Assembly: GCA_035315125.1 (NCBI GenBank) | Contig: DATFYI010000164.1 | Span: 444-64,443, forward strand | DNA length: 64,000 nt | Origin: Anaerolineaceae bacterium | GTDB lineage: Bacteria; Chloroflexota; Anaerolineae; Anaerolineales; Anaerolineaceae | Reading direction: 5' to 3' | Shown here: in pieces, positions 3,688 to 51,064 of the stretch | How the letters are laid out: the number at the start of each line of letters is the position of its first letter | How positions within the stretch are numbered: the stretch's first letter is position 1 | The notes under the pieces: model-generated | Databases searched by the model: none | Told to the model about the DNA's origin: nothing | The model's input: only the letters and a program-made list of their open reading frames with translations | Translations under genes and position numbers: made by a program

Positions 3688-4092
3688 TTATCTTAGATAG
3701 TGGTCTCGGACTTTGGCTGCAATTTGGTGATCCGTCATCTTATCAACCGTTTCAACACCCACGATCCGTCTTCCGAGATCGTCACGCTTAAGCCGATTTT
3801 CGAGCTCGACCTTGGCCTCGCCCGGGCCAAATATCCAAATTGAATCAGCATCACGTAGAAAGGAGATAACACCATCATAGTAACTACCCAGATGGTCTCC
3901 AAACTGCCGGTCTCGCATGTCCTCGGCGGTCGATCCTTGTGATATATTGGGAGCTTTCGAACGCGTACCGCTTGCAAACCGGACTTGCTTCTCCATGTTC
4001 GACCGTATTTCCCGGGTTACTTCAACCTCATTTTCGATTGTCACGAACACTGTCTTGCGATGATCGATCCACAAACCCACTTCCTTTTTCAT
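3688..4092 (-). CDS. hypothetical protein (134 aa from the internal ATG)
   Basis: Long ORF. The ATG at 4092 (MKKEVGLWIDHRK...) is preceded by AAGGAG. No motif recognised. Confidence 0.5.
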   Translation of the reverse strand: MKKEVGLWIDHRKTVFVTIENEVEVTREIRSNMEKQVRFASGTRSKAPNISQGSTAEDMRDRQFGDHLGSYYDGVISFLRDADSIWIFGPGEAKVELENRLKRDDLGRRIVGVETVDKMTDHQIAAKVRDHYLR

Positions 4093-4168
4093 TGCTTTCT
4101 CCTTTACAACGGGTGCGTGCGATTGGCGCGAATCCGTATCTTGAAATTTAGAATATCCTGATTTCAGG

Positions 4169-4432
4169 CTAATCAACGACTGGCGGCTTTAGAATCGGTC
4201 GTTTGTGATGGATGGTTAAGCTTCTATTAGTTCGATAAAACTGCTTCAGGAGTCTCTCCAATTCGTCGACAGCCTTATCATTGCTGTAGCCATAGCGGCT
4301 TTTAAGCAAGGCCAGGAACCGGTCACGTTTAGGGTTGGACTTTCTTGAATCCTCAGCACTATGTTTGCTCAACAATTCATGGATCCGACTGTGGTTCTGT
4401 TTATTCTGCCCATTCCCAATTTCGTTTGCCAT
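4169..4432 (-). CDS. hypothetical basic protein (87 aa)
   Basis: ORF in the same orientation as its neighbours. No recognisable motif. Confidence 0.4.
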   Translation of the reverse strand: MANEIGNGQNKQNHSRIHELLSKHSAEDSRKSNPKRDRFLALLKSRYGYSNDKAVDELERLLKQFYRTNRSLTIHHKRPILKPPVVD

Positions 4433-4501: not shown

Positions 4502-5044
4502 CTAACTTAAGTAGCTTTCGTCGCCGGTAAGCTCGGGTTCGATGTAAGAGCGCAGCATCCAGGCCATCTTTTCGTGCTGGAATAATATGTCCACCAGAAA
4601 GTTATGTGTGCCTTCGTCCTCATACTCTTCCGAGCAAGTTTTAGCATCTTCGCGCAAGAAGCGGATGGTGGTTTCATGGTCGGCTAAAAGGTGCAAAGCG
4701 TCTGGTACAACTCCGGGTTGTTCCTCCAGCCGGGTATGATCAATGAATTCTTGCAAGGTTCCAATAGCAATTCCACCCAGCATGCGCACCCGCTCAACGA
4801 TCTCGTTAGAGAGATTGTTGAGCTTTTCGTACTGGGAATTGAACAGAAAATGCAACTCGAAGAAATTTGATCCAGTGGTGTTCCAGTGGGCGCTGCGGGT
4901 TTTCAGGGTGAGTACGGCCTCATTGGCCAGGATTTTATTGAGGATCTCCACAATTGAATTACGTGCATCACCTTCCAGTCCGATGTTTGGCTGGATAACG
5001 ACCTGCAGCTTCATGTTTTTATCGACGATCGGTAAGTGTTTCAT
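4502..5044 (-). CDS. dps: Dps family DNA-protection/ferritin-like protein (paralog 1)
   Basis: LNKILANEAVLTLKTRSAHWNTTGSNFFELHFLFNSQYEKL...VERVRMLGG is the typical Dps ferroxidase region. Start taken at the ATG at 5044, with SD GAAAGGA; the track start at 5059 is a TTG. Confidence 0.9.
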   Translation of the reverse strand: MKHLPIVDKNMKLQVVIQPNIGLEGDARNSIVEILNKILANEAVLTLKTRSAHWNTTGSNFFELHFLFNSQYEKLNNLSNEIVERVRMLGGIAIGTLQEFIDHTRLEEQPGVVPDALHLLADHETTIRFLREDAKTCSEEYEDEGTHNFLVDILFQHEKMAWMLRSYIEPELTGDESYLS

Positions 5045-5050
5045 GTGGCA

Positions 5051-5147
5051 TCCTTTCAATAGATAGTTTTTTGCGACAATACCATCCTATTCGAAAGGAG
5101 CTATAGATGTCCCTAAAAAAACCTATTAAATATCTATAAAATTATGG
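5051..5147 (-). promoter_or_regulatory. conserved stress promoter + 5' leader hairpin module, copy A (upstream of dps1)
   Basis: In gene orientation: ATTTAA (5131-5126), N12, GGGACAT (5113-5107), GATAGC-like box, then a long hairpin (5100-5051) whose 3' arm contains the SD GAAAGGA. Homologous to copies at 5860-5927, 9147-9243, 15566-15666 and 20190-20281. Confidence 0.55.
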
Positions 5148-5339: not shown

Positions 5340-5447
5340 TCAGCCAACAGCGGGCTTACGGGCTTCTTGCTTCAAACGCCGGTTATGGATACGCGTGCTC
5401 TTGGACAATCGTTTTAGTTTAGTCTTGCTTATTATTTTCTCTGCCAT
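5340..5447 (-). CDS. possible small basic protein (35 aa)
   Basis: ATG at 5447 is preceded by GGAGTAATTCA. Product MAEKIISKTKLKRLSKSTRIHNRRLKQEARKPAVG. Below ORF-track cutoff and unsupported otherwise. Confidence 0.3.
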   Translation of the reverse strand: MAEKIISKTKLKRLSKSTRIHNRRLKQEARKPAVG

Positions 5448-5578
5448 TGAATTACTCCTTATTTTGAAATGGAGTTGGGCCTTTCAATCTGAGCCGAGAT
5501 GCAGCACACGCCCGGATTAAAAATCGGGTGCGTAGATCTGGCATGAACTCTTGCTGCATTCGTTCAGGCTGTCTTTAT

Positions 5579-5806
5579 TTATGCAGACTTCTCGTTCTTG
5601 ATGACGCCGATTTCTTCATCATGTGCTTCTTCCCCAGCCCGCTCATTCTTGACGACGCCGATTTCTTCATCATGAGTTACTTCTCCAGCCCGCTCGTTAT
5701 TTACGACGCCAATTTCGGGCTGATGCAGTACTTCACCTGGCCGCTCGTTATTTACTCGGCCCACTACTACAGCTGTTACATTTTTAGGTGCTTCTTGGTC
5801 AGACAT
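5579..5806 (-). CDS. acidic 17-aa tandem-repeat mini-protein (75 aa), paralog 1
   Basis: About four 51-bp/17-aa repeats, xxxEIGVV(N/K)NER(A/P)GE(V/E). SD GAGGAG lies 8 nt before the ATG. Module copy C sits directly upstream. A paralog lies at 50746-50982. Confidence 0.55.
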   Translation of the reverse strand: MSDQEAPKNVTAVVVGRVNNERPGEVLHQPEIGVVNNERAGEVTHDEEIGVVKNERAGEEAHDEEIGVIKNEKSA

Positions 5807-5859
5807 TGAAAATCTCCTCTGATGGTCTAATACATTAGCTTGGTTTCTTATTACTACCT

Positions 5860-5927
5860 ACTATCCTATCCTAAATGGGCTATCTAAGTCCCTAATAAGC
5901 CCTATAAAATATCTAAAAAATTATAGG
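5860..5927 (-). promoter_or_regulatory. conserved stress promoter module, copy C (upstream of repeat mini-protein)
   Basis: ATTTTA (5910-5905), N12, GGGACTT (5892-5886), GATAGC. Identical to copy B apart from one substitution and one 1-nt indel over about 48 bp. Abuts the PAP2 stop codon. Confidence 0.5.
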
Positions 5928-5929
5928 TT

Positions 5930-6700
5930 TTATCCAAACCCTTTCAGCACATACCCGTCGACAATCACCCCGAGCAGCCCCCAGGCTGTGCCCAGGATGG
6001 CGCCGGCCAGCACGTCGCGCGGGTAATGCGCCCCGACGTACATGCGCGTGAGGCCCACCAGCAAGGCCGTAGCGTACAGCAGGAACACTATCCAAACGCT
6101 GGGGTGAAGGTGCTGGGCCAGCAGCGTTGCCATGAAAAAGGCCTGGCTGGTATGCCCGCTGGGGAAAGATCGCCCGGCGGGCCGGAAACCAACAATGCGC
6201 GCTTTGACCAGCTTGATAAAAGGTCGCGAGCGGTGGATTAAAAACTTAACCAGCTCGACCAGCAACCATAAGGTCAAAGTGCCTAAAATAAGCTCGGAGG
6301 CCAGATAACTTTCGTTGATCAAAAACAAGAACACGGCTATTGCCAGGGTAGTAAAGCCATTACCGACCTGGGTGAAAGCTAACATAATCCGGTCCAGCCA
6401 AAGCGGGCGCCGCCCGCGCACATTAAAGAACAAGAATGCCCAGGCGTCCAGCTGCTGACCGGTTGACCAGACTAATGATATGGCCAGTAAGCTGAAAACT
6501 AACAGCATGCCTGACAGGATTTTATGGGACAGCAAACCATCCCAAAAAGCAACCCGCATAGTTACAGGTAGAAAAGCAAGAAATACTAGCAGACCGGCCG
6601 ACAGGCCAATCAGCCGGGCTACCGGCTGATGATGATTCACCCAAAGTGTAAATCGCCCCCAGGTCGTTGGAATTTTAACTTCAGGCGAGGGTTGCATCAT
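5930..6700 (-). CDS. PAP2-family phosphatase (membrane)
   Basis: PAP2 motifs HRSRP, PSGHT, TRMYVGAHYPRD; polytopic. Start placed at the ATG-ATG at 6700 to limit overlap with the upstream gene; the track ORF extends to 6778. Confidence 0.8.
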   Translation of the reverse strand: MMQPSPEVKIPTTWGRFTLWVNHHQPVARLIGLSAGLLVFLAFLPVTMRVAFWDGLLSHKILSGMLLVFSLLAISLVWSTGQQLDAWAFLFFNVRGRRPLWLDRIMLAFTQVGNGFTTLAIAVFLFLINESYLASELILGTLTLWLLVELVKFLIHRSRPFIKLVKARIVGFRPAGRSFPSGHTSQAFFMATLLAQHLHPSVWIVFLLYATALLVGLTRMYVGAHYPRDVLAGAILGTAWGLLGVIVDGYVLKGFG

Positions 6701-7685
6701 TCGTTTGATGTTCAATGATGTTGCTCGTTTCCGGCTCAAGTTCTGGCGCCGGTTGGGAAACCATGACTGCCAGGGCATGCCGGCGCACTTTGATCTGTAC
6801 CCGTCCTTCTCCTATGGGAGACCCATCCACCATGACCGGCATAACAGGGTGGGTATCAATCACCACTCTGCGTACATGGTAGTGTTCGATGCGTGGGTCT
6901 TCCGGCTTGCCTTCGCCCACCCCTTGGAGAACATAGCCCAACAAATCCATCTTGGACAGGTCTGCAAAGAACAGCACATCCAATAAACCGTCACTAAAGG
7001 AAGCATCAGAGCCAATCCGATAATGAAGGCCAATTACGGGCATGTTGGAAACCAGTACAATATGGCCAAAATTATGGATCTCTTGCTTATTCTCCAATAA
7101 AAGATGGATTTCGGCTGGTGGGGAATTGACCAGTGTTGCCAGGAAATCGCCGACCCGTGCCAGGTTGCCGTGCTGTACGTCATCAGCGGATGGAAAAAGC
7201 GATGAGACCAGACCGACCGAGCAAACTTCCAAGAAAGGAGTAGAAATGTTGCCGCAGGTGGCCATGCCAACGTCCACTTTGATTCGCCGGCCATTTCGCA
7301 GAATGGAAATGGCAGCCGGAATATTGTTGGCAGGGATGCCCAGGCTGAGGGCATTGTTATTCTGTGTGCCGGTAGGGATAATCCCCAGGGTGGCATGTGT
7401 ACCGGCCAGGCTCCTGGCCGAAGTAGAAATCGTGCCGTCGCCGCCGCATACCACAAACATGCGGATGCCCTGCGCCAGTGCCTCCTGGATCACCCCCGGC
7501 AGGTCACAGCCCGGTTCGATCAAAAAAGGTTCTGGAATGAGCTTCCAATCCTGCATCTCACTGATCACATCCATCAGCTGGATAGGCGACTCGCCCGTTG
7601 ATCCAGATCCGGGATTGAAAATCAGCTTGGCTCGTATGGGGCGTCTACTCTTAGCACTGGGCTCTACATTCAAATGATTGTCCAT
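6681..7685 (-). CDS. diacylglycerol kinase family lipid kinase (YegS/DagK-like)
   Basis: AKLIFNPGSG...VVCGGDGTIS...GIIPTGTQNN is the typical DAGK catalytic-domain signature. Confidence 0.85.
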   Translation of the reverse strand: MDNHLNVEPSAKSRRPIRAKLIFNPGSGSTGESPIQLMDVISEMQDWKLIPEPFLIEPGCDLPGVIQEALAQGIRMFVVCGGDGTISTSARSLAGTHATLGIIPTGTQNNNALSLGIPANNIPAAISILRNGRRIKVDVGMATCGNISTPFLEVCSVGLVSSLFPSADDVQHGNLARVGDFLATLVNSPPAEIHLLLENKQEIHNFGHIVLVSNMPVIGLHYRIGSDASFSDGLLDVLFFADLSKMDLLGYVLQGVGEGKPEDPRIEHYHVRRVVIDTHPVMPVMVDGSPIGEGRVQIKVRRHALAVMVSQPAPELEPETSNIIEHQTNDATLA

Positions 7686-8092: not shown

Positions 8093-9073
8093 CTACAGCC
8101 TTCCTTCAGTTGCCAATTGATGCTCCAGCTCGGCGATCCAATTTGCAATAGGTGGTTCGGCTGCATCAACAATTTCTACGTATGTCGTATTTTCACCTGG
8201 CAATACAGGCAGATTGGCCGGCCTTATTTCAGATGGAATGATCCGGTCAAGCCACGGATCATGGCCCGCAAAGCTTCCATCTATGATTGTCAAAGGGGTG
8301 GGGGTAACATTTGCAGGACCAATGCGCATACGACAAGGCCAGGGCATTGGCATAAACTGCCTGGAGACCAAAACAATTCCCAGGATGAACAACACAAGAT
8401 CCAGGACCGCAAATACAGGTATCAAAGGCTTGACGATTTGGTTTACAAAAGACTGTTGTTCCCGGCTGTATTCCTGCATCAGAAGGGCAGCCTGAGTGGC
8501 AGCGTAAGGTGTAGCCGTCAAAGGAGCAGCCGTCAAAGCTGCCACGGCCTGATTGGTTTGCAAGACCTGGACATTCAGAACCGCCTGAGCCTGGGCAGTC
8601 TGGCTGCCAACCACCCGGTAGGCTGATTGGGCGGCCGCAGCAGCACTGCGCTGAGCAGCGGCTGTGGCATCCCTGGCTATTTTCGTTTGCTGGGTTATGA
8701 ACTCTTGTGTGGCAGCAGCTCGGGTGATGTTCTGGCTGATAGTAGTTGCCTGGAAATCTAAAGCCAGTTGCTGGCGTTGGTTATACTGCAATGTGGACTG
8801 TGCGGCGCTATTTGCGGCCTGAGACATGTTTAGGCTGACCTCAGTGGATTGATGAGAGAGATCTAATAACTGGCTCTGGCCAGTATCGATGGTGGCCTGG
8901 GCATAAACGGAAGCAGGGTTGGGCAATCCAGAAATGTCTGGCGTGGGTGTACCAGGGCCTGATAGGATTGCAACTTCAGGTGTGGTTGCAACCGTGCTGG
9001 CACAAGCCAACATCAAAAGAGCTATGATGGCTATTATCAATTTCTTTATGATAGATTGCTTGTTTGTGTTCAT
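8093..9073 (-). CDS. Gln/Ala-rich putative lipoprotein with C-terminal TM helix
   Basis: Signal peptide with lipobox LLMLAC, long Q/A/T-rich low-complexity region, TM VFAVLDLVLFILGIVLV. Module copy D lies upstream. Confidence 0.55.
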   Translation of the reverse strand: MNTNKQSIIKKLIIAIIALLMLACASTVATTPEVAILSGPGTPTPDISGLPNPASVYAQATIDTGQSQLLDLSHQSTEVSLNMSQAANSAAQSTLQYNQRQQLALDFQATTISQNITRAAATQEFITQQTKIARDATAAAQRSAAAAAQSAYRVVGSQTAQAQAVLNVQVLQTNQAVAALTAAPLTATPYAATQAALLMQEYSREQQSFVNQIVKPLIPVFAVLDLVLFILGIVLVSRQFMPMPWPCRMRIGPANVTPTPLTIIDGSFAGHDPWLDRIIPSEIRPANLPVLPGENTTYVEIVDAAEPPIANWIAELEHQLATEGRL

Positions 9074-9146: not shown

Positions 9147-9243
9147 CTTTTTTCGTAAGATGGTTGATGTTCATCTATTATCTTATCCGAAAGCAGCTAT
9201 CGATGTCCCTAATTCAATCTGTAAAATACCTATTAAAATGATC
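9147..9243 (-). promoter_or_regulatory. conserved stress promoter + leader hairpin module, copy D
   Basis: ATTTTA (9227-9222), N12, GGGACAT (9209-9203), GATAGC, then a hairpin CTTTCG(GA)TAAGAT...ATCTTACGAAAG (9193-9147). Overlaps the mgtA stop codon. Confidence 0.5.
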
Positions 9244-11875
9244 ATTCGCCAAACTTATGGAAAAACCAGGTCTTTACCAGCTGTGTCAGAACCACATAAC
9301 ACAACAACATGACCGCCAGAAGCAGCCAATACAATGGTGGCAGTGTGACAAACCCTAGCGTGTTGGCCAAGGGTGAAACCGTCAGCCAGGCGCCCACCGC
9401 AACGATGATGAGAGATGTGCCGATCAGTGGCCAGCTGGCCCGGCTCTGGATAAATGGGATCTTGTTAGTACGGATGACGTGAATGATAAGGGTCTGCGTG
9501 AACAGGCTTTCTACGAACCAGCCGGTGTGGAAGAGGGCCGGGTTGTTCCATGAGTTGAAAACGTACAGCATAATAAAGAAAGTCAGGTAATCGAAGATCG
9601 AACTGATTGGGCCGATAAAGAGGATAAATCGCTGGATTGAGCCAATCGTCCATTTGCGCGGCTTGGCCAGCCAGTCAGCGTCGACCCCGTCAGTGGGGAT
9701 GGTAGTCTGTGAAAAATCATACAGCAAGTTATTTGTAAGCACCTGGATCGGCAGCATAGGGAGGAAAGGCAGGAATGCACTGGCCCCCACGACACTGAAC
9801 ATGTTGCCGAAGTTGGAGCTGGCTGCCATCCTGATATACTTAATGATGTTTCCGAACACCCTGCGACCCTCCAGAACGCCCTGCTTCAGAACCAGGAGGC
9901 TGTTTTCTAACAGAATGATATCGGAGGACTCCTTGGCGATATCTACAGCGCTGTTAACAGAGATGCCCACATCCGCCGCCTTCAAAGCCGGGGCGTCGTT
10001 AATACCATCGCCCATAAAACCAACCACGTGGCCTTTGCGCTGAAGAGCACGGATGATGTGTTCTTTGTGGGCCGGAGCCAGCTTGGCAAAGACACTGGCC
10101 GAGTTCACGGCTTCGTCGAGTTCCTTTTCGCTCATCGCCTCAATTTGAGGGCCTAGCAATATCTTCTCAATTGGCAGACCCACTTCTTTACAGATATAGG
10201 CAGTAATGATCTCATTATCACCGGTCAAAATCTTGACGTCCACATTTAGATCGTGCAACTGCTTCAAGGCCTGCGTGGCAGTATCCTTGGGCGGGTCAAG
10301 GAAGGACATGAAACCAAGCAGGATCATGTCCGATTCATCTTTAACAGTATAACTGGGCTCATCCGTGGCGCCTGGCATTTCCTTGTAAGCCAGGGCAATT
10401 ACCCGGAAGCCCTGATCGTTCAAGTTACTGGCGATCTTCAGTCCTTTGTCATGGTACTCGGGCAACATATCGATGGCCTTACCATCGATATCCACCCGGT
10501 TACAAAGGCTTATCACTTCTTCTACTGCGCCTTTACAGATCAGTGTATTCAACCCGGCTTTGTCTTCCACAATCACGGACATGCGTTTGCGTATAAAGTC
10601 AAATGGAATTTCGTCAATCTTGCGGTACTTTTCTTGTGCTTCTGAGGCAGGTTCCAGTTCCTCATGGTCGAGGACAGCGGCATCGAGCAAGTTCTTTAAC
10701 CCGGTATGATGGTAACTATTGAGGTAGCCATATTGGAGCACTTTATCACTGGAATTTCCCTGCACGTCCAGGTACTTCTCAAGTACGATCTTTCCCTGGG
10801 TGATGGTACCGGTCTTGTCGGTGCACAATACATCCATCGCTCCGAAGTTCTGGATGGAATTGAGGCGCTTGACAATGACTTTCTTCTTCGACATGTCGAG
10901 GGCGCCCTTGGACAGGTTGACCGTCACGATCATGGGCAGCATTTCGGGGGTCAGCCCAACAGCTACTGCCATGGCAAACAGAAATGCTTCCAGCCAGTTG
11001 TGTTTGCTGAAACCATTGATCAGGAAGACAGCCGGAACCATAATGGCTATAAAACGAATCATGAGCCAGGTGAATTTGTTTATCCCCTTGTCGAAGCCAG
11101 TCAGCTGGCGCTCACCTACAATACTGGCTGCCAATGATCCAAAGTAGGTCTGGTCTCCGGTGTGAATAACTACCGCGCTGGCAGAACCGCTCTGAACGTT
11201 GGAGCCCAGGAAGCAAATGTTGGGCAGTTCTAACGGGTTTTGAAGGGCTGCTGGAGCCTGGCCGGCTTTTTTCTCTACCGGCAGAGATTCACCGGTGAGA
11301 GCGGCCTGATCCAGGAAAAGGTCTTTAGCGGTAAGTACCCGCACGTCGGCCGGCGTCATATCACCGGCTGCCAGCCGGATGATATCGCCCGGCACCAAGA
11401 ACTTCAGCGGAACTTCTTTTTCCTTACCATCTCGCAGCACTGTGGCTGTGGTGCTGACCATCGCTTTGAGCTTTTCGGCCGCGTTATCGGCGCGCATTTC
11501 CTGGAAGAAACGCAACACCACGCCCAACAGCACCATCACGAAAATGACCAGCATGGCTCGCAGGTCGCCGGTCAGAAAAGATATCACACCCAGCGCCGTG
11601 AGCAGGATAACCAGGGGATTCTTGACGTTACTCAACAGACGCATCAGAGGGGATTGGCGTTTCTCACGGGCAATCTCGTTCAACCCATACTGCTTCGTAC
11701 GAGAGTCGGCTTCAGCAGTGCTTAAGCCGATTGTTTGCGAATCAAGCCCCTTCAAAACCGTATCATTATCTGCGCGTGCCTTTTCTAATAATTGATCGGA
11801 AAAATGCGCTCCATTCTTACTAGGGGGATTATTCAGACGCTGAGTTGGGTTCAGGGTCGTTTTCAGAGTTGCCAT
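9242..11875 (-). CDS. mgtA: magnesium-translocating P-type ATPase
   Basis: CTDKTGTITQGK phosphorylation site, TGDNE, MGDGINDAPALKAADVGIS, and the MgtA-specific C-terminal PIQVLTNNLLYDFSQTTIPTDGVDADWLAKPRKW. Confidence 0.92.
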   Translation of the reverse strand: MATLKTTLNPTQRLNNPPSKNGAHFSDQLLEKARADNDTVLKGLDSQTIGLSTAEADSRTKQYGLNEIAREKRQSPLMRLLSNVKNPLVILLTALGVISFLTGDLRAMLVIFVMVLLGVVLRFFQEMRADNAAEKLKAMVSTTATVLRDGKEKEVPLKFLVPGDIIRLAAGDMTPADVRVLTAKDLFLDQAALTGESLPVEKKAGQAPAALQNPLELPNICFLGSNVQSGSASAVVIHTGDQTYFGSLAASIVGERQLTGFDKGINKFTWLMIRFIAIMVPAVFLINGFSKHNWLEAFLFAMAVAVGLTPEMLPMIVTVNLSKGALDMSKKKVIVKRLNSIQNFGAMDVLCTDKTGTITQGKIVLEKYLDVQGNSSDKVLQYGYLNSYHHTGLKNLLDAAVLDHEELEPASEAQEKYRKIDEIPFDFIRKRMSVIVEDKAGLNTLICKGAVEEVISLCNRVDIDGKAIDMLPEYHDKGLKIASNLNDQGFRVIALAYKEMPGATDEPSYTVKDESDMILLGFMSFLDPPKDTATQALKQLHDLNVDVKILTGDNEIITAYICKEVGLPIEKILLGPQIEAMSEKELDEAVNSASVFAKLAPAHKEHIIRALQRKGHVVGFMGDGINDAPALKAADVGISVNSAVDIAKESSDIILLENSLLVLKQGVLEGRRVFGNIIKYIRMAASSNFGNMFSVVGASAFLPFLPMLPIQVLTNNLLYDFSQTTIPTDGVDADWLAKPRKWTIGSIQRFILFIGPISSIFDYLTFFIMLYVFNSWNNPALFHTGWFVESLFTQTLIIHVIRTNKIPFIQSRASWPLIGTSLIIVAVGAWLTVSPLANTLGFVTLPPLYWLLLAVMLLCYVVLTQLVKTWFFHKFGE

Positions 11876-12517: not shown

Positions 12518-13027
12518 TCACATTTTGCCGTCGGAGATGGTCGTGTGAGTTGTGCGTACGTTTCCTTCTCCACCTGGCGTCTGTTCACGGGTCGTGCGCG
12601 TGAATGAGCGCGAGCCGGGACGGTCCGCAATCAACCGGATTACGTAAGCGAAGCCCCAGAAGATCAGCGCATAAACGACCATGGCAATGAGCGTAGTGAG
12701 TTCAAGGGCTGAGCCACCGGACGTTGGCGTTGGGATCAATCCGAAGAATGGCCAAACGAACACTCCCGTGACACCGTACATGAGCACTGAAAAGCCGCTG
12801 TCCGGATTGGCCGCAATCAATCTCAATACGAAGCGGAAAGCCAGCAGAATTTCTAAAAGGGCCAGAATGCTCCAAAGGATGCGGTTGATCTGGAACCATT
12901 CCATCCGGCGTTCGGCGGCCACATCGCGCACCACTTGCTCAGTAGCAACGTAGCCTGGATGTCGTGTGACCAACGTTTCTTCACGGCGATCCACCGCCAT
13001 ATCATCGGTCTCGAGGTTGTCGATCAT
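12518..13027 (-). CDS. YggT-like membrane protein (paralog 1)
   Basis: LLEILLAFRFVLRLIAANPDSGF...VTGVFVWPFFGLIP...LIAMVVYALI resembles the YGGT repeat. Paralog at 13838-14353. Confidence 0.6.
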   Translation of the reverse strand: MIDNLETDDMAVDRREETLVTRHPGYVATEQVVRDVAAERRMEWFQINRILWSILALLEILLAFRFVLRLIAANPDSGFSVLMYGVTGVFVWPFFGLIPTPTSGGSALELTTLIAMVVYALIFWGFAYVIRLIADRPGSRSFTRTTREQTPGGEGNVRTTHTTISDGKM

Positions 13028-13162: not shown

Positions 13163-13435
13163 TCAATTCCTGGAACTTCTTCTGCCACCAGCTACCAGAC
13201 GAAAAACAATCAGCAGCAGGATAGCTCCACAGAAAGCTACCAAGATCGATTCAAGGTTGATCCCGTTTACCGCGGCGCTAATATGGAGGAAAGTAGTACC
13301 GATCCAGCCCCCTAACAAACCGCCCAGCACACCGACGATAATGTCGCCAATCAACCCGTAGCCACCACCCCTCATGACCTGTCCCGCCAAAAATCCGGCG
13401 ATCAAACCAACGACGATCCATGCAAGTATTCCCAT
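13163..13435 (-). CDS. GlsB/YeaQ/YmgE family stress-response membrane protein (paralog 2)
   Basis: MGILAWIVVGLIAGFLAG...GDIIVGVLGGLLGGW. Close paralog of 12070-12339. Confidence 0.9.
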   Translation of the reverse strand: MGILAWIVVGLIAGFLAGQVMRGGGYGLIGDIIVGVLGGLLGGWIGTTFLHISAAVNGINLESILVAFCGAILLLIVFRLVAGGRRSSRN

Positions 13436-13837: not shown

Positions 13838-14353
13838 TCAAAGGGGACCGGGGGTTTGGGTCGTACGTTCGGTGACGACCGTTTGACTGGCGCTCACTGG
13901 TGCTTGGGTCGTAGTGCGATTAGTTGTCATCGTTCGGCTGACGCCCAAAGGTGCTTGCTGAGGGGTGTGATCGTTAATCGTCGTCTGTCTGGTGCTCACG
14001 GGGCCGCGCGGGCGGTAGAAAAGCACGTACACAATCTGTGCAAGAGCCCAACCGATCAGCAGATACACGATCATGGCAATGATGGAAGAAATCTCAAACA
14101 CCATGCCGCCAGCAGATAGGGGGGTTACTAGGCTTGCAAAAGGCGCCACGAAAAGGTTGGTCAGGTTGTAAAGCAGGGTTGCGAAAGGATTGGCCGCATT
14201 GACGCCGATCAACTTAAACAATACCCGTAGTGCAATTGCGATTTCGAGCAGTGCGACCAGCAGCCAGATCAATTGTGTGACTTTAAAGGTGGCCACGCGC
14301 TGCTCGCGCCCGGCTTCATGTTGTGAAGTTCTTATTTCTTGATAATCACTCAT
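13838..14353 (-). CDS. YggT-like membrane protein (paralog 2)
   Basis: LLEIAIALRVLFKLIGVNAANPF...LTNLFVAPFASL...IIAMIVYLLI. Paralog of 12518-13027. Confidence 0.6.
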   Translation of the reverse strand: MSDYQEIRTSQHEAGREQRVATFKVTQLIWLLVALLEIAIALRVLFKLIGVNAANPFATLLYNLTNLFVAPFASLVTPLSAGGMVFEISSIIAMIVYLLIGWALAQIVYVLFYRPRGPVSTRQTTINDHTPQQAPLGVSRTMTTNRTTTQAPVSASQTVVTERTTQTPGPL

Positions 14354-14581: not shown

Positions 14582-15013
14582 CTATCCAAGCAGCGGCCGG
14601 ACAGGTCTGAGTAAACTACCCAGCAATAAACCAACAACCAGTGCGATCGTTATTGCAACCCAGGGATATCTGGCAGCCTGCTTGCCGAAGCCGCCTGGAA
14701 CTTTGTCGGCAACTTCCTGCGCCTTGGCGTTGTATTGGCTCAAGCCATGTCCAACATCCTTCTTCACTGTCGCTGCAGCGCCAACTACAGCCTCCTTGGC
14801 ATCGCCTGTCATTTTTTCGAATCCCTCGCCTAATTGAGAGACATTGTCATTCACCCAGCTGGTCAAGTCTTCTTTGGCTTTGACAGTGGCCTGGCTAAAG
14901 TTGTCTTGTACTCTGGTAACCCGAGCGGTGCTGTCGTCCATCAGGGTGCTTATATCTTTTTTTACCTTAGCAGTATCCTTGCGGACTTTGTTTTCAAATT
15001 GGTGGTCATTCAT
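14582..15013 (-). CDS. DUF883 / ElaB-YqjD-like membrane-anchored stress protein
   Basis: Helical hydrophilic N-terminus and C-terminal anchor YPWVAITIALVVGLLLGSLL, typical of ElaB/YqjD/YgaM. Overlaps the dps2 stop by 8 nt. Confidence 0.7.
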   Translation of the reverse strand: MNDHQFENKVRKDTAKVKKDISTLMDDSTARVTRVQDNFSQATVKAKEDLTSWVNDNVSQLGEGFEKMTGDAKEAVVGAAATVKKDVGHGLSQYNAKAQEVADKVPGGFGKQAARYPWVAITIALVVGLLLGSLLRPVRPLLG

Positions 15014-15563
15014 CTTTTAAAATCCTTTTCTGGCTTTCGCCGTAAACTGGTTCATTCTCGATATAGGAACGTAGGATCCAGGCCATCTTTTCATGCAAAC
15101 GCATAATGCTGACCAGCAATTCGAATGTGCCTTCATCCTCGTACTCTTCAGTGCATTTTCTGGCATCCTCACGTAAAAAACGAATGGTGGCCTCATGGTC
15201 AGCTAAAAGGCGCAGGATATCTGGCACAACACCAGTCTGTTCTTCCAGACGGGTGTAATTGATAAATTCCTGCAAGCTGCCGATAGCAATCCCACCCAGC
15301 ATGCGTGCCCGCTCGGCTAACTCATCGGAGATATCGCTCAATTGTTCGTACTGGGAATTGAATAGGATGTGCAGCTCGAAGAAACCTGCTCCGCTCACGT
15401 TCCATTGGGCGCTGCGGGTTTTTATGGTCAGCACGGCCTCATTGGCCAGAGTGTTGTTGAGGAGTTCCACAACCGAATGGCGGACATCGCTATCCAATCC
15501 TATATTCGGCTGGATGAGGACCTGCAGCTTCGTGTTATGGCCGTCGTTCCGATTGTGTTCCAT
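15006..15563 (-). CDS. dps: Dps family DNA-protection/ferritin-like protein (paralog 2)
   Basis: LNNTLANEAVLTIKTRSAQWNVSGAGFFELHILFNSQYEQL...AERARMLGG. Start taken at the second ATG (15563), behind SD GAAAGGAAG. Confidence 0.9.
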   Translation of the reverse strand: MEHNRNDGHNTKLQVLIQPNIGLDSDVRHSVVELLNNTLANEAVLTIKTRSAQWNVSGAGFFELHILFNSQYEQLSDISDELAERARMLGGIAIGSLQEFINYTRLEEQTGVVPDILRLLADHEATIRFLREDARKCTEEYEDEGTFELLVSIMRLHEKMAWILRSYIENEPVYGESQKRILKDE

Positions 15564-15565
15564 AT

Positions 15566-15666
15566 AGCTTCCTTTCATCAGATGGTTTTTTCTTGCAATA
15601 CCATCTTATGCGAAAGGAGCTATCTAAGTCCCTAATAAGCCCTATATAATATCTAAAAAATTATGG
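15566..15666 (-). promoter_or_regulatory. conserved stress promoter + 5' leader hairpin module, copy B (upstream of dps2)
   Basis: ATTATA (15650-15645), N12, GGGACTT (15632-15626), GATAGC, then hairpin arms 15621-15600 and 15586-15566. The 3' arm contains the SD. Confidence 0.55.
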
Positions 15667-15673
15667 TTATTGG

Positions 15674-16357
15674 TTAGAAGATTTTTTTCGAGTGCAGGTT
15701 ATATCCCATGCCGGGCACCGTTTCGAGCAGGTCGCCGTAATCCCCCAGTTTTCTGCGCAAGCGGCCGAGATAAGTATGTAAATAGTGATTCGAGCCGCGG
15801 TACTCTGGCCCCCAAACCTGGGTAATCAGCTCATCATGGGTAACGATGGCATCCAGGCGGTGCGCCAGTTCGGCAAGAATGGCATACTCGGTGTGGGTAA
15901 GATGCACATCGTTCTCACCGATCAGGACGCGGCGCGCTTCCAGGTCTATACTGAGGTCTCCAATCTGAATTTTTGAGTCATCGGTTTTCGCGGCGACGTA
16001 GGATCGGCGCAGAAAAGCGCGCACTCGCGCCAATAATTCTTCCTGCCCAAACGGTTTGGTGACGTAATCATCTGCGCCCGCATCCAGTGCCGCCACTTTG
16101 AGATCTTCTTCCAGCCGGGCGCTCAATACAATAATGGGCACATCCGAACGCGCCCGGATCCATTTACAAATATCGACCCCCGAAAGACCGGGCAGCATCA
16201 GGTCCAGCAGAACCAGGTCCACCGGTTCCTGTTCAAATAAGGCAAGCGCCTGGTGGCTGTCCTCCGCTTCGCTGACGGTGTAGCCACGTTTCACCAGGTT
16301 GACCCGCACCAATTTGCGGATATTTGGATCATCTTCAACAATTAATATATTCCCCAT
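15674..16357 (-). CDS. OmpR-family response regulator
   Basis: Receiver domain (ILIVEDD...DLVLLDLMLPG...DDYVTKPF) plus a winged-helix C-terminus (VHLTHTEYAILAEL...GMGY). Confidence 0.9.
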   Translation of the reverse strand: MGNILIVEDDPNIRKLVRVNLVKRGYTVSEAEDSHQALALFEQEPVDLVLLDLMLPGLSGVDICKWIRARSDVPIIVLSARLEEDLKVAALDAGADDYVTKPFGQEELLARVRAFLRRSYVAAKTDDSKIQIGDLSIDLEARRVLIGENDVHLTHTEYAILAELAHRLDAIVTHDELITQVWGPEYRGSNHYLHTYLGRLRRKLGDYGDLLETVPGMGYNLHSKKIF

Positions 16358-16360
16358 GCC

Positions 16361-18070
16361 TTATTGCTCCTCTTTGGAAGGTACCGCCGGGGCATGCAAA
16401 GGGACAAGAGGGATAGTAAATGAAATGGTCGTTCCCGGTGTGTTTTTTTTCTTAATCCAAATGCGGCCGCCATGAGCTTCTACCAGCCCTTTACAAATAG
16501 CCAATCCCAATCCGGCGCCTTTCGCCGAGCTATTCTCCGCATTTATGCCCCGTTGAAAAGCCCTAAATACCCTCTTTTGTTCGGCCGGTGGAATACCCGG
16601 CCCCTGGTCACTGATATTGATCTGCACAAAATCTCCCCGCACACTGGCCGAGATGCTGATTTCCGTCGCTTTGGGGGAATAGATAGAGGCGTTCCGCACC
16701 AGATTGACCAATACCTGGGCGATGCGCCTGGCGTCTACATAGACCTGCGGCAGGTTGGCAGGTAGATGATGTGTCAATGTATGCCCGCCAGTTAAGCTAT
16801 TAAATTGCGGCAAGGCATCTTCGATAATCTCGTAGAGAGAATGAGGCGCCAGCGAAATCGGCAGCATGCCCGCTTCCAGGCGGGAGAGATCCAGCAGGTG
16901 ATCGATGAGCTCCTGGAGCCGGTCGGCCTCCTGTTGAATAGTCTGGATGAAATCGCGCTGTTCGTCCGGCTCCCAGGTGACATCATCGGCCAACAATGTG
17001 GTGGTAAACCCGATGATAGAGGTCAAAGGAGTCCGCAGCTCATGCGAGATCATGGCCAGGAACTGGGTTTTTATTTCATTGGCCCGCTCAGCCTCATGGC
17101 GGGATCCTTCCTCGACCTCGAGCAGTTGCAGGTTATAAAGGGTGACCGAGGCCTGGTTTACGAGCACTTTAAGATGGTGCAGTTCGATATGATCGAATTG
17201 ATGTTCTTGTTTGTAATAAACCAACAGACATCCGAGCCAATCCGCTAAGGCGACCAGCGGGAAGATAGCCAGGGTTCGAATCTGTCCTTCCAGCAGGAAA
17301 TCACGCAGCAAGGGCGTCAAACGACTGTCGGATTGTATCCCTGTGATGATCACCGTCCGGTTGGATTGGAACAGCCCCCACAAAGCAGGTTCTTCGTACA
17401 GGCTGGTTTCAGTCAGCCAGGGAGGTGGATTCTGACTGGACAGCCAGGCGGCTTTCAAATCGACCCCGCCGGCCGGCCCAACCCGAGGATTATCGAAAAA
17501 AAGCAGGGCTGCTCGTTGGGCGGAACGAAGCTCACGTGCAGACATGAGTGTTTTGAGAACTGCTTCAGGTTTACGGGACAGGCTCATCTTGTGACTGAGG
17601 TCAAACTGCTCGCGAGAACGATCCAGGGCTTTCCGCAAAGTTTGATCCACCTGGTTTTGATCGGTGATATCCTGGGCAACACAGACCTGATAAGATGTGT
17701 CCGATGTCTCTGCACGGATCAGAAAGGTATGAACAGAAATCCATCTCAGGCTGCCGTCCGGACGCACAATTCGGTAAGAGAGGTCCAGGGAATTGCGCTG
17801 GTTATCGTCAGGGCTGGCAGACATCACTTTTACCCGGTCTTCCGGATGGACACTTTCGATCAGTGTTGCCGGATCGGCATAAAGGCTTTCGCAGGAACGA
17901 CCCCAAACGATCTCAAAAGCCGGGCTGACATAGAGAATGGAATCCGTATTCAAGTCAAGTATCCAGACCACTTGCTGAATGTTCTGCAAAATTTGCTTGA
18001 GGTAAGGGTAACCCTCAAGCAATGCTTTTATATCAATTTGAGATTTTTCCTGTTCTAGCATATCCGTCAT
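16361..18070 (-). CDS. PAS/GAF-containing sensor histidine kinase
   Basis: PAS-like N-terminus, GAF-like middle, H-box SHELRTPLTSI, N-box LVRNA, G-boxes DQGPGI and GAGLGLAICKG. No TM segment is evident. Confidence 0.88.
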   Translation of the reverse strand: MTDMLEQEKSQIDIKALLEGYPYLKQILQNIQQVVWILDLNTDSILYVSPAFEIVWGRSCESLYADPATLIESVHPEDRVKVMSASPDDNQRNSLDLSYRIVRPDGSLRWISVHTFLIRAETSDTSYQVCVAQDITDQNQVDQTLRKALDRSREQFDLSHKMSLSRKPEAVLKTLMSARELRSAQRAALLFFDNPRVGPAGGVDLKAAWLSSQNPPPWLTETSLYEEPALWGLFQSNRTVIITGIQSDSRLTPLLRDFLLEGQIRTLAIFPLVALADWLGCLLVYYKQEHQFDHIELHHLKVLVNQASVTLYNLQLLEVEEGSRHEAERANEIKTQFLAMISHELRTPLTSIIGFTTTLLADDVTWEPDEQRDFIQTIQQEADRLQELIDHLLDLSRLEAGMLPISLAPHSLYEIIEDALPQFNSLTGGHTLTHHLPANLPQVYVDARRIAQVLVNLVRNASIYSPKATEISISASVRGDFVQINISDQGPGIPPAEQKRVFRAFQRGINAENSSAKGAGLGLAICKGLVEAHGGRIWIKKKNTPGTTISFTIPLVPLHAPAVPSKEEQ

Positions 18071-20189: not shown

Positions 20190-20281
20190 TTGACATTTGA
20201 TAGATATTTTATAGGTTTTTAAAGGGACATTGACAGCCTTTTTTTCGTAAAATGATCCAGAGGAAATTTTGCGAAAAAAAG
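20190..20281 (+). promoter_or_regulatory. conserved stress promoter + leader hairpin module, copy E (plus-strand orientation, faces usp-cgs)
   Basis: ATTTTA (20206-20211), N12, GGGACAT (20224-20230), TTGACAGC, then a 16-bp hairpin CCTTTTTTTCGTAAAAT...ATTTTGCGAAAAAAAG (20238-20281). Confidence 0.5.
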
Positions 20282-20483: not shown

Positions 20484-21581
20484 ATGTTTAACCGAATCCT
20501 GGTTCCACTGGATGGGTCGACGCTGGCAGAGCGAGCGATCCCTCACGCTGAGCAGTTTGCTCGCATCTTTGGCTCAAGTATTATTTTGCTGCAGATCCTT
20601 GATCCTACTTCCTATCATGAAAACCCGAATGCTGTAGATCCCTTGAGCTGGCAAATTCGAAAGGCCGAGGCCGATATGTATATGAAAGGGATCGCTGCAC
20701 GGATTCGTGAAAACATGGGCGTAAGCGCGTCTGATTCCAAAGATATACATAGCTCACAAAGCACAGGCCAGGATGAAAAAAAGGCCCACGTAACCTATTC
20801 GATTCGGGAGGGCAAAACGGCAGAAAACATCGTCAATTTTGCTCAAACAGAAGCGATCGACCTGCTTGTTATCAGCACGCATGGTTCGGGCGGGTTGAGC
20901 CGCTGGAACCTCAGCAGTGTCACTCAAAAGGTGATCAACCTGATTTATCTGCCAGTGCTCATCGTGCGCGCCTATAACCAACCCGAGACAGAGGATGCCA
21001 GGATTCGCTACCGGCGTATTCTCCTCCCGATCGACAGCTCACGCCGCGCCGAGTGTGCCCTGCCCGCCGGGATTGCCCTGGCACGTGGAGAAAGGTCCGT
21101 GCGACCGGCATCTAAGGCAAATAACCTTTTACCTCAAGACTCTGCGCCGGCTACCTCATCATTCCAAACAAAGCTGATCCTGGCCGCCGTGATCAAGCCG
21201 CCGGAAATTCCCATCCCCGAACCTTACCCCGTTGAGATTGAACGCCTCTCTGAACAATTGATTCAGGTCAGTCGTGAAACGGTTAGTAATTATGTGAATG
21301 AGATGAAAAAGCGCTTATCGGTAGATTGTGAGGCTTGCGTGGTTGAGAACAAAAGCGTAAATTCCGCCATTCAGGAATTAGCCAGCCAGGATCAGGACAT
21401 CGACCTGGTCGTGCTGTGTGCTCACGGTTATACAGGGCAATCCAACTGGCCTTATGGAAGCGTGGCTCGCAATTACATGGAGCATGGCACCAAACCCGTC
21501 CTGGTCATTCAGGATGTAGTGCGATCCCAGGTTCTGCCAACTACGGCAGAAATTGCCGCCGAAAAATCCGGGGGACGTTGA
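20484..21581 (+). CDS. tandem universal stress protein (two UspA domains with a linker)
   Basis: MFNRILVPLDGS...DLLVISTHGSGGLSRWNLSSVTQKV and RILLPIDSS...DLVVLCAHGYTG...GSVARNYMEHGTKPVLVI. Confidence 0.88.
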   Translation: MFNRILVPLDGSTLAERAIPHAEQFARIFGSSIILLQILDPTSYHENPNAVDPLSWQIRKAEADMYMKGIAARIRENMGVSASDSKDIHSSQSTGQDEKKAHVTYSIREGKTAENIVNFAQTEAIDLLVISTHGSGGLSRWNLSSVTQKVINLIYLPVLIVRAYNQPETEDARIRYRRILLPIDSSRRAECALPAGIALARGERSVRPASKANNLLPQDSAPATSSFQTKLILAAVIKPPEIPIPEPYPVEIERLSEQLIQVSRETVSNYVNEMKKRLSVDCEACVVENKSVNSAIQELASQDQDIDLVVLCAHGYTGQSNWPYGSVARNYMEHGTKPVLVIQDVVRSQVLPTTAEIAAEKSGGR

Positions 21582-38014: not shown

Positions 38015-38223
38015 CCCCTCCGCTAAAATCCGGTTTTTGGATTTGTCAAAGCTGGGCCTGTAAAAATCGGGGCAATTGTGGTCGTGGATATATGGTTTTA
38101 CCCCCCCGCTGAAATCCGGTTTTTGGATTTGGCAAAGGTGGGTCTTTAAAAAACCAGGTTAATGATGGTCGTGGATATATGGTCTTACTCCTCCCCCAAA
38201 ATCATGTTTTTTGATTTTGGGGG
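38015..38223. repeat. tandem ~86-bp repeat (2 full copies + partial), each containing a palindromic hairpin
   Basis: Copy 1 is 38015-38096 and copy 2 is 38101-38183; they share CCCC(T/C)CCGCT(A/G)AAATCCGGTTTTTGGATTTG...GGTCGTGGATATATGGT. A third palindrome CCCCAAAATCATGTTTTTTGATTTTGGGG lies at 38194-38222. Confidence 0.7.
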
Positions 38224-50571: not shown

Positions 50572-50673
50572 GTGCAGAGATAGAGGTAAGACAATAATTC
50601 GTTTCATATGAACTGTAGCGCTGCCAGAGATGAGCCAAAGTGGGAGGCTATCTAAAAAAAGAGGAGCAGGATT

Positions 50674-50703
50674 TGCAATTAATATGATATATATGATATA
50701 ATA
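50674..50703 (+). promoter_or_regulatory. sigma70-like promoter for repeat mini-protein 2
   Basis: TTGCAA (50674-50679), 18-nt spacer, TATAAT (50698-50703), embedded in an ATATGATAT-type AT repeat. Confidence 0.4.
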
Positions 50704-50745
50704 TATATAATTATATACCGGTATTCAGATCGAAAGGAGAGCTTA

Positions 50746-50982
50746 GTGATGACAGCAAATCGAAAACCTGATGAAAATGAAGAAATCGGTGTGGTCAATA
50801 ACGAGCGGGCTGGAGAGGAATCCGCCTTACCCGAAGTTGGCCTGACCCATAACGAACGGCCGGGTGAAGTAGGCCACGATCCAGAAGTTGGTATCGTCAA
50901 CAACGAGCGACCTGGAGAGGAAGCCAGACGGGAAATCGGCGTGGTCTATAACGACTCGGATTCCGACAGCGAATCCTCGTAG
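50746..50982 (+). CDS. acidic 17-aa tandem-repeat mini-protein (78 aa), paralog 2
   Basis: SD AAAGGAGAG. Repeats ENEEIGVVNNERAGEES / ALPEVGLTHNERPGEVG / HDPEVGIVNNERPGEEA / RREIGVVYND, then an SDSDSESS tail. The start may be the ATG at 50749. Confidence 0.55.
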   Translation: MMTANRKPDENEEIGVVNNERAGEESALPEVGLTHNERPGEVGHDPEVGIVNNERPGEEARREIGVVYNDSDSDSESS

Positions 50983-51064
50983 ACCTGACCGATCCATTCA
51001 CGAATTCTATTTCTCCACCGCTGTGGCAATCTGCCGCAGCGGTATTTATTTATATAAGCCAGAC

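Follow-up and report, generated by a model that had tools for sequence, protein, structure and literature searches.

What do two mini-genes, made almost entirely of one short repeated peptide, do for the bacterium that carries them? We asked this question of a 64,000-nucleotide stretch of DNA from an Anaerolineaceae bacterium (contig DATFYI010000164.1, positions 444 to 64,443, assembly GCA_035315125.1), called here the window, which comes from a 91%-complete metagenome-assembled genome (MAG; G000). A sequence-only reading had pointed to two genes in it, here called rep1 (5579..5806, minus strand, 75 aa) and rep2 (50749..50982, plus strand, 77 aa from its ATG), and had suggested protectants of the hydrophilin or late embryogenesis abundant (LEA) kind. 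We give an even chance of being right to the reading that the products are hydrophilin/LEA-like disordered stress proteins acting through their repeated motif, their protective role being what we infer.

Two paralogous genes and their coding strand

The two genes are paralogs, and each is built of four 17-residue repeats, corresponding to 51 bp of DNA. This is what had been read from the letters, for proteins of 75-78 aa with about four repeats, and both open reading frames (ORFs), the 51-bp period and the similarity of the products were found. The two proteins are 60% identical over 57 residues (BLASTP, E = 2e-19), and Tandem Repeats Finder detected the 51-bp period at 5591-5755 (3.2 copies, 82% matches, score 160), with the inner 2.5 copies of the rep1 repeat reaching a score of 189 and 86% matches. 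The rep1 repeats carry the cores VVGRVNNE, EIGVVNNE, EIGVVKNE and EIGVIKNE, spaced by 17, 17 and 17 residues; rep2 also has four cores, spaced by 17, 17 and 16 residues, followed by a Ser/Asp-rich tail (YNDSDSDSESS) that is kept in its orthologues (P0002-P0006, P0014 and P0024). Each 17-mer of the two proteins contains two Pro and two Gly, while aromatic residues number 0-1 and Cys is missing. When the whole 3.7-Mb assembly was translated in six frames (7.4 million residues), the pattern E[IV]G[RVLI][VIT]xN[ED] gave 7 matches, all of them inside rep1 and rep2. The coordinates follow from the ORF list and the sequence; for rep2, an alternative GTG start at 50746 would extend the ORF to 50746-50982 (plus strand, 78 aa), and gene callers choose the ATG at 50749 (P0005).

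Both genes have the good Shine-Dalgarno (SD) sequences that had been reported for them. For rep1 this is GAGGAG (5814..5819, minus strand), 7 nt 5' of the ATG, and for rep2 AAGGAG (50734..50739, plus strand), conserved in the orthologous loci L003 and L004. The sense frame is open in all relatives and an AGGAG-like SD stands ahead of the assigned start in most of those examined, as AAGGAG or GAGGAG 6-9 nt 5' of the start, with AAAGGAG or AAGGAG as equivalents of the rep1 site.

The earlier remark that the antisense frame is also open holds at rep1, opposite which a plus-strand frame runs for 93 codons (5528..5809, 93 aa), but not at rep2, where the antisense frames are interrupted by stops. 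The strand assignment itself was borne out by pairwise comparison of three paralog-2 orthologues (the rep2 of the window, L003 and L004). Here the ratio of nonsynonymous to synonymous substitution rates (dN/dS) in the sense frame was 0.08-0.16, and differences at codon positions 1/2/3 numbered 8/4/21, 7/2/21 and 9/2/31, third positions taking 21 of 33, 21 of 30 and 31 of 42. The codon-aligned antisense frame, the one that is open at rep1, gave 1.0-1.9 and has a stop in two of the three sequences (window rep2 and L004). Because this equivalent frame at paralog 2 has such ratios and stops, we take the open frame opposite rep1 not to be a gene. Another antisense frame showed a low dN/dS (0.18-0.25), but its wobble positions coincide with those of the sense frame, and stops interrupt it in two of the three sequences.

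It could be argued from the 93 open codons opposite rep1 that the loci are not protein-coding as assigned, but are a repeat of DNA or RNA or have their gene on the other strand. We consider the probability of this near negligible, given the clustering of substitutions at sense third positions, antisense ratios of at least 1 in the codon-aligned frame, the absence of any Rfam match in a scan of the whole window, and an SD, a start, a promoter and a terminator that are all in place. Judged from these substitution patterns and signals, rep1 and rep2 are real, translated mini-genes under purifying selection on their annotated strands.

A rare family with a conserved octapeptide

How widespread are such proteins, and which part of them is conserved? 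A word-indexed search of 5.8 billion proteins returned six members, and an exhaustive phmmer search of 1.8 billion representatives found 6 true relatives, adding four to the family total; two further phmmer matches (P0010 and P0011) were rejected on inspection as spurious eukaryotic repeat proteins. A profile search lifted the family to 32, and a search seeded with P0019, a member fused to an RRM domain, added a second such fusion (P0035). The sequences recovered from the 5.8 billion proteins number about 40. Every relative is from a MAG or a short metagenome contig, and members range from 44 to 150 aa. The named records are Anaerolineaceae or 'uncultured Chloroflexia' MAGs, together with one contig binned as Bacteroidota. 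The latter (L016, JBLMZU010000022.1, 6351 bp) carries a four-core member and is the sole match outside Chloroflexota-labelled records; it could be explained by horizontal transfer or by a binning error. The family profile found a copy in 6 of 301 Anaerolineaceae genomes (6 of 74 genera) and in none of 400 genomes from the rest of Chloroflexota. Three genomes of three genera (G000, G108 and G301) hold two paralogs each, one with the promoter module described below and one without it. The rep1 orthologues P0001 (locus L006) and that of L013, a locus of G108, show 71% identity and contain 3 and 5 repeats; core copies per protein number 2-7 across the family and 3, 4 or 5 among rep1 orthologues.

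Profile searches gave the family no name. When both proteins and 31 members were scanned against Pfam and NCBIfam, nothing came up beyond sub-threshold Bflower_2 matches and noise; a sequence-profile search of the PDB gave 0 matches at E <= 10, and a literature search for the motif strings turned up no paper. The KGG/LEA group 1 (PF10685, PF00477), CsbD (PF05532), LEA_4 (PF02987) and dehydrin (PF00257) families were absent at E <= 10 from the window proteins and at E <= 1 among the 31 members, in agreement with the earlier statement that the repeat is not KGG, CsbD or LEA. By these database searches the family is rare, unnamed and lineage-restricted, almost confined to a few Anaerolineaceae genera.

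Conservation was counted over 103 repeats (cores) from 31 proteins. In the core, E is kept in 97, I/V in 103, G in 103, R/V in 82, V/I/T in 95, then, after a free position, N in 98 and E/D in 99. Outside it, the 'R-P-G-E' that follows is partly kept (P in 43 of 103, G in 54 of 103), and the repeat period runs from 16 to 40 residues, 17, 18 and 22 being the commonest. A His stands 4-5 residues ahead of each core in the rep1 clade and is not conserved beyond it; like the PGE half of the repeat, it is kept in the close clade only. Isoelectric points (pI) range from 4.1 to 9.95 across the 31 members, some of which are basic (pI 9.3-9.95); since net charge varies in this way, acidity is not a family trait. 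According to this alignment, what marks the family is the octapeptide E-[IV]-G-[RV]-[VIT]-x-N-[ED], and the words 'acidic' and '17-mer' fit the clade of the window alone. The sequence-only reading had called the mini-proteins acidic, which has to be given up as a family property, and had taken the 17-residue repeat as their unit, which stands for the clade of the window but gives way elsewhere to the 8-residue core. These corrections, with the His and the PGE kept in the close clade alone, weaken both a metal-binding idea and a mechanism purely of bulk charge, and point to a specific repeated motif.

The proteins are predicted to lack a fold. AlphaFold2 models built on alignments of 12 and 31 sequences had a predicted local distance difference test score (pLDDT) of 52-53 and a predicted TM-score (pTM) of 0.11-0.12, with no DSSP elements. 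The grand average of hydropathy (GRAVY) is -0.80 for rep1 and -1.17 for rep2, with 9.3% and 10.4% Gly, respectively; over the family, GRAVY is mostly below -1, Gly exceeds 6% in 29 of 31 members (mostly 7-11%), Cys is almost lacking and aromatic residues number 0-1 in the close clade. Hydrophilins are reportedly defined by more than 6% Gly and a hydrophilicity index above 1 (GRAVY below -1), and the definition is said to include accumulation under water deficit. On composition, rep2 and 22 of the 31 members satisfy both the Gly and the GRAVY limits, so that the earlier description as hydrophilin-like suits them, whereas rep1 falls short on GRAVY. From these models and compositions, the rep1 and rep2 proteins are probably small, cytoplasmic, intrinsically disordered and very hydrophilic.

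Two kinds of promoter and a stress island

We then consider how the genes are controlled. Upstream of rep1 lies a promoter and leader (5855..5925, minus strand), the 'stress module' of the sequence-only reading, with ATTTTA at 5905-5910, a 12-nt spacer, GGGACTT at 5886-5892 and a conserved GATAGCCCATTTAGGATAGGATAGTA. The consensus of about 70 nt is TTTTAGATATTTTATAGGnnTTATTAGGGAC[AT]TnGATAGCyCnTTTCGnATAgGATgGTA, and the five copies in the window align with 67% mean column identity. A genome-wide scan found six true copies, five of them in the window within 15 kb (5051-5147, 5855-5925, 9147-9243 and 15566-15666 on the minus strand, 20190-20281 on the plus strand) and one on contig C88 (near 1435, minus strand). 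Those in the window precede dps1, rep1, a gene for a 326-aa protein (8093-9073), dps2 and a USP gene. The rep1 orthologues in L006 and in L013, which are from other genera, have the same module upstream, and diverged forms lie upstream of relatives in L017 (of G301) and in L021/L023. In the syntenic island of G108, three copies within 12 kb of L013 stand before the genes for Dps, the repeat protein and Transgly_assoc; the Dps gene has a stand-alone RRM gene as its neighbour. The core ATTTTA-N12-GGGAC[AT]T is similar, not identical, to SigB/SigF-type promoters (the SigB-type consensus is GTTTAA-N12-15-GGGTAT). The segment 3' of the -10-like GGGAC[AT]T, from GATAGC to GATgGTA in the consensus, matches the promoter in its degree of conservation. 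Folding of the rep1 leader RNA was no better than that of shuffled sequence (z = +0.93). By the recurrence of the module, rep1 shares a conserved regulon, defined by this promoter element, with Dps, USP and Transgly_assoc genes.

The picture at rep2 is a different one. Here a promoter scan detected the near-consensus sigma-70-type promoter previously proposed (50673..50702, plus strand; TTGCAA-18-TATAAT, with a TG before the -10), which in L003 and L004 is kept with hardly a base changed; the second paralog of G108 (L020) has a comparable promoter, TTGACT-17-TATAAT, ahead of it. A terminator scan placed an intrinsic terminator behind the gene (51017..51043, plus strand; 12-bp stem with 8 G-C pairs, 3-nt loop, T-rich tail). 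The promoter lies inside an AT-rich repetitive stretch, ATATGATATATATGATATAATATATAT (50680-50717), also conserved in L003 and L004, and this conservation suggests that the stretch may have a second role as an operator. In the neighbourhood of paralog-2 orthologues a RibD_C gene stands on one side and a convergent YkuD gene on the other. As one copy depends on the module and the other on a sigma-70-type promoter, the former would be stress-induced and the latter regulated differently.

Elsewhere in the family, Transgly_assoc is the most recurrent neighbour, 0.3-4.6 kb from the repeat genes in L006, L018, L013 and L038. L018 also has DUF3309, CBS and two CsbD genes, L019 a PAS histidine kinase and L021-L023 PsiE. 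The stress link drawn by the sequence-only reading is supported by the genes under the module, which include two dps genes and a USP gene, and by the CsbD, Transgly_assoc, DUF3309 and PsiE genes around the relatives. In the two fusion proteins, P0019 (L038:458-907, 149 aa) and P0035 (L039:754-1191 and L040:918-1355, 145 aa), which are 72% identical in their repeat part, an array of four cores follows an RRM_1 domain, in place of the usual Gly-rich tail. The fusion gene comes directly after a Transgly_assoc gene, whose L038 copy is 68% identical to that of the window, or otherwise directly after a gene for an ElaB-like protein of 138 aa, 42% identical to its counterpart in the window. These fusions hint that the octapeptide array can work with an RNA-binding protein, which we regard as a lead and not as proof.

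The island around rep1 contains several other genes recognised by Pfam. Directly downstream of rep1 is dps1 (4502..5059, minus strand; ferritin-like/Dps, Pfam Ferritin E = 2.4e-23), with its own module at about 5051-5147. On the other side are a PAP2 phosphatase (5930-6778), a DAGK/YegS-like kinase (6681-7685), a P-type ATPase (9242-11875), two YGGT-like genes (12518-13027 and 13838-14353), the Transgly_assoc gene for a small membrane stress protein of the GlsB/YeaQ/YmgE type (13163..13435, minus strand; PF04226), dps2 (15006-15578), an OmpR/PAS-GAF two-component pair (15674-18070) and a tandem-USP gene (20484-21581) ahead of an open frame of about 3000 codons. Directly 3' of dps2, with a start that overlaps the dps2 stop, lies a gene for a tail-anchored protein of 143 aa (14582-15013, minus strand) with a helical N-terminal part (weak Apolipoprotein match) and a C-terminal transmembrane segment, YPWVAITIALVVGLLLGS, which we take to be ElaB/YqjD-like in architecture. 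Two island companions have no Pfam match, namely an 87-aa protein (4169-4432, minus strand), 66% identical to L013:9343-9651 and also present in L006, and a 162-aa protein (3688-4176, minus strand) with a homologue at L013:9726-10130. Between rep1 and dps1, a 35-codon ORF with a strong SD (AAGGAG) encodes a very basic peptide, MAEKIISKTKLKRLSKSTRIHNRRLKQEARKPAVG (5340-5447, minus strand); it was considered as a basic partner of the acidic rep1 protein and rejected, as it is not conserved in L006 or L013. Away from the island, an unrelated 87-bp tandem repeat occupies 38015-38217 (2.3 copies, 81% matches, Tandem Repeats Finder score 264).

A proposed disordered stress protein and its rivals

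How would such proteins act? In the reading that we favour, the functional unit would be an array of usually four (2-7) octapeptides with variable Pro/Gly/Glu-rich linkers between them, and the family would be part of a general-stress gene set in a few Anaerolineaceae genera. rep1 would be transcribed from the module that also drives two dps genes and the USP operon, as well as a Transgly_assoc gene in a related genome, while rep2 would be transcribed separately, as a monocistronic unit between a strong sigma-70-type promoter and a terminator of its own. Upon water loss or another stress, an abundant, flexible and multivalent chain would then shield or bind macromolecules through the repeated motif.

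Several observations weigh against this proposal. Eight strictly conserved residues combined with free linkers and free charge fit a specific binding motif better than a non-specific shield. With its two Pro and two Gly, each 17-mer cannot form amphipathic helices of the kind by which LEA group 3 proteins work, and rep1, with its GRAVY of -0.80, misses the formal cut-off for hydrophilicity. Moreover, paralog 2 and its orthologues lie outside the stress island, with RibD_C, YkuD and TetR genes as neighbours, and the 'stress' label of the module is one of guilt by association with dps, USP and Transgly_assoc. Finally, no sigma factor of the SigB/F/G class was found above the NCBIfam cut-off in the 91%-complete genome, where TIGR02980 gave four matches at three places, the best with 144.8 bits against a cut-off of 234 bits.

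In the main rival reading, the octapeptides would form a short linear motif (SLiM) by which the protein docks multivalently onto one specific partner, with RNA or ribosome handling as the most plausible setting; instead of being a general protectant, it would scaffold, sequester or regulate this partner during stress. The conservation of the 8-residue core alone, with linker length, composition and net charge drifting, speaks for docking, as do the position of the array in P0019 and P0035, at the C-terminus of RRM_1 where bacterial RRM proteins normally have their Gly-rich tail, the stand-alone RRM gene in the island of G108, and the neighbours of the fusion genes, Transgly_assoc and ElaB-like, which belong to the same island set. 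Yet no neighbour is conserved across all contexts, the three ordinary RRM genes with Gly-rich tails in the genome of the window lie on other contigs with no module upstream, and the fusion is known from two sequence clusters on contigs of 1.3-1.5 kb. We regard docking as possible but on the whole unlikely. Doubtful in a similar way is the broader suggestion that the octapeptide represents a previously unrecognised bacterial SLiM, whose arrays, free or fused to RRM, may multivalently dock a specific stress-time partner such as RNA, the ribosome, an RRM protein or Dps; the mini-proteins would then scaffold or regulate a stress-induced assembly and not be passive protectants.

The conserved residues also allow a peptide that binds or buffers a divalent metal (Fe2+, Ca2+ or Mg2+) alongside Dps, chelated by Glu, by Asn-Asn-Glu and by the His of the rep1 clade. 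Each core offers two or three conserved carboxylate or amide ligands, the His is four or five residues before it, rep1 adjoins dps1 and has the module in common with it, and paralog 2 ends in SDSDSESS. But the confinement of the His to the rep1 clade, the basic members, the lack of Cys and of any known metal-binding motif, the absence of metal-related neighbours at the paralog-2 loci and the fact that adjacency to Dps is not general make this improbable in our view.

A folded solution would be that of hairpin 'petals' forming a small barrel, perhaps upon oligomerisation or ligand binding alone. In beta-flowers, hairpin petals are arranged as a shallow beta-barrel around a hydrophobic or aromatic interior, and the tip of the hairpin bears a semi-conserved [DNEQ]xxG (Durairaj et al. 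2023, PMC10584680). Bflower_2 (PF21785, clan CL0395) was the commonest weak Pfam match (7 of 31 members, lowest E 0.037), and the proteins resemble beta-flowers in having short tandem repeats of similar length and, in the window, an E-R-P-G comparable to [DNEQ]xxG. Scores near 14 bits (13.8 bits, E = 0.052, for the window protein) are, however, far below the gathering cut-off of 38 bits, AlphaFold2 predicted neither strands nor a fold (pLDDT about 52), an aromatic core could hardly be made from 0-1 aromatic residues, and the P-G positions (43 and 54 of 103 repeats) and the period of 16-40 residues are variable, so that we find a beta-flower very improbable. An RTX-like beta-roll was rejected from the sequence, as the GGxGxD motif is absent and the PGE half is not conserved.

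The most remote of the peptide-level explanations treats the gene as a multi-core precursor of a processed or exported ribosomal peptide, either a ribosomally synthesised and post-translationally modified peptide (RiPP) or a signalling peptide, and a short conserved core with variable spacers and copy number does resemble multi-cassette precursors. In none of the more than 10 neighbourhoods inspected (L003, L004, L006, L013, L018-L023 and L038-L040), however, did a modifying or maturation enzyme, a protease or a dedicated exporter recur; the proteins lack a leader, a signal peptide and Cys, the core shows no conservation of Ser, Thr or Lys, and the RRM fusion is hard to square with a precursor, which we consider extremely improbable. 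A lasso-peptide core was rejected as well, the Gly-to-Glu spacing being 5 residues and not 6-8.

Relation to known systems

If the hydrophilin/LEA-like reading is right, the family would be a sequence-unrelated addition to the few bacterial repeat-built hydrophilic stress proteins (KGG/GsiB, CsbD and LEA-like) in a phylum, Chloroflexota, whose stress physiology is almost unstudied. An invariant octapeptide set among free linkers, with free charge and variable copy number, would make it well suited as a model in which to distinguish action by bulk properties from action by a specific motif. In addition, a conserved stress promoter module and its putative regulon (Dps, USP, Transgly_assoc and the repeat protein) would be better defined in Anaerolineaceae. 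The family is very rare and narrow and current ideas are not overturned, and we expect its general impact to be moderate.

Bacterial RRM proteins with a Gly-rich tail, of the cyanobacterial Rbp type, provide one comparison, as the array of P0019 and P0035 sits at the tail position behind RRM_1; unlike those proteins, rep1 and rep2 have no RRM, and the array is acidic or neutral and not RGG-like. With LEA group 3 (LEA_4, 11-mer repeats) the family shares the nature of a repeat-built and, by prediction, disordered stress protein. LEA_4 repeats become amphipathic helices on drying, whereas the 17-mers of the window are rich in Pro and Gly, AlphaFold2 predicted no helix and LEA_4 gave no Pfam match.

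The closest likeness is to the hydrophilins of LEA group 1 and the KGG type (PF10685, PF00477), such as the general-stress proteins GsiB and YciG. These are likewise small, Gly-rich, hydrophilic and predicted to be disordered, consist of tandem copies of one conserved hydrophilic motif in variable number, and are found in a general-stress setting beside CsbD, Dps and GlsB-type genes. Pfam detected no sequence similarity between them and the present family, in which the motif is E-[IV]-G-[RV]-[VIT]-x-N-[ED] and not KGG or the LEA 20-mer, 8 residues are conserved while the linkers are free, and the distribution is extremely narrow. Though by profile a member of none of them, the family would work like the KGG/GsiB, CsbD and LEA hydrophilins.

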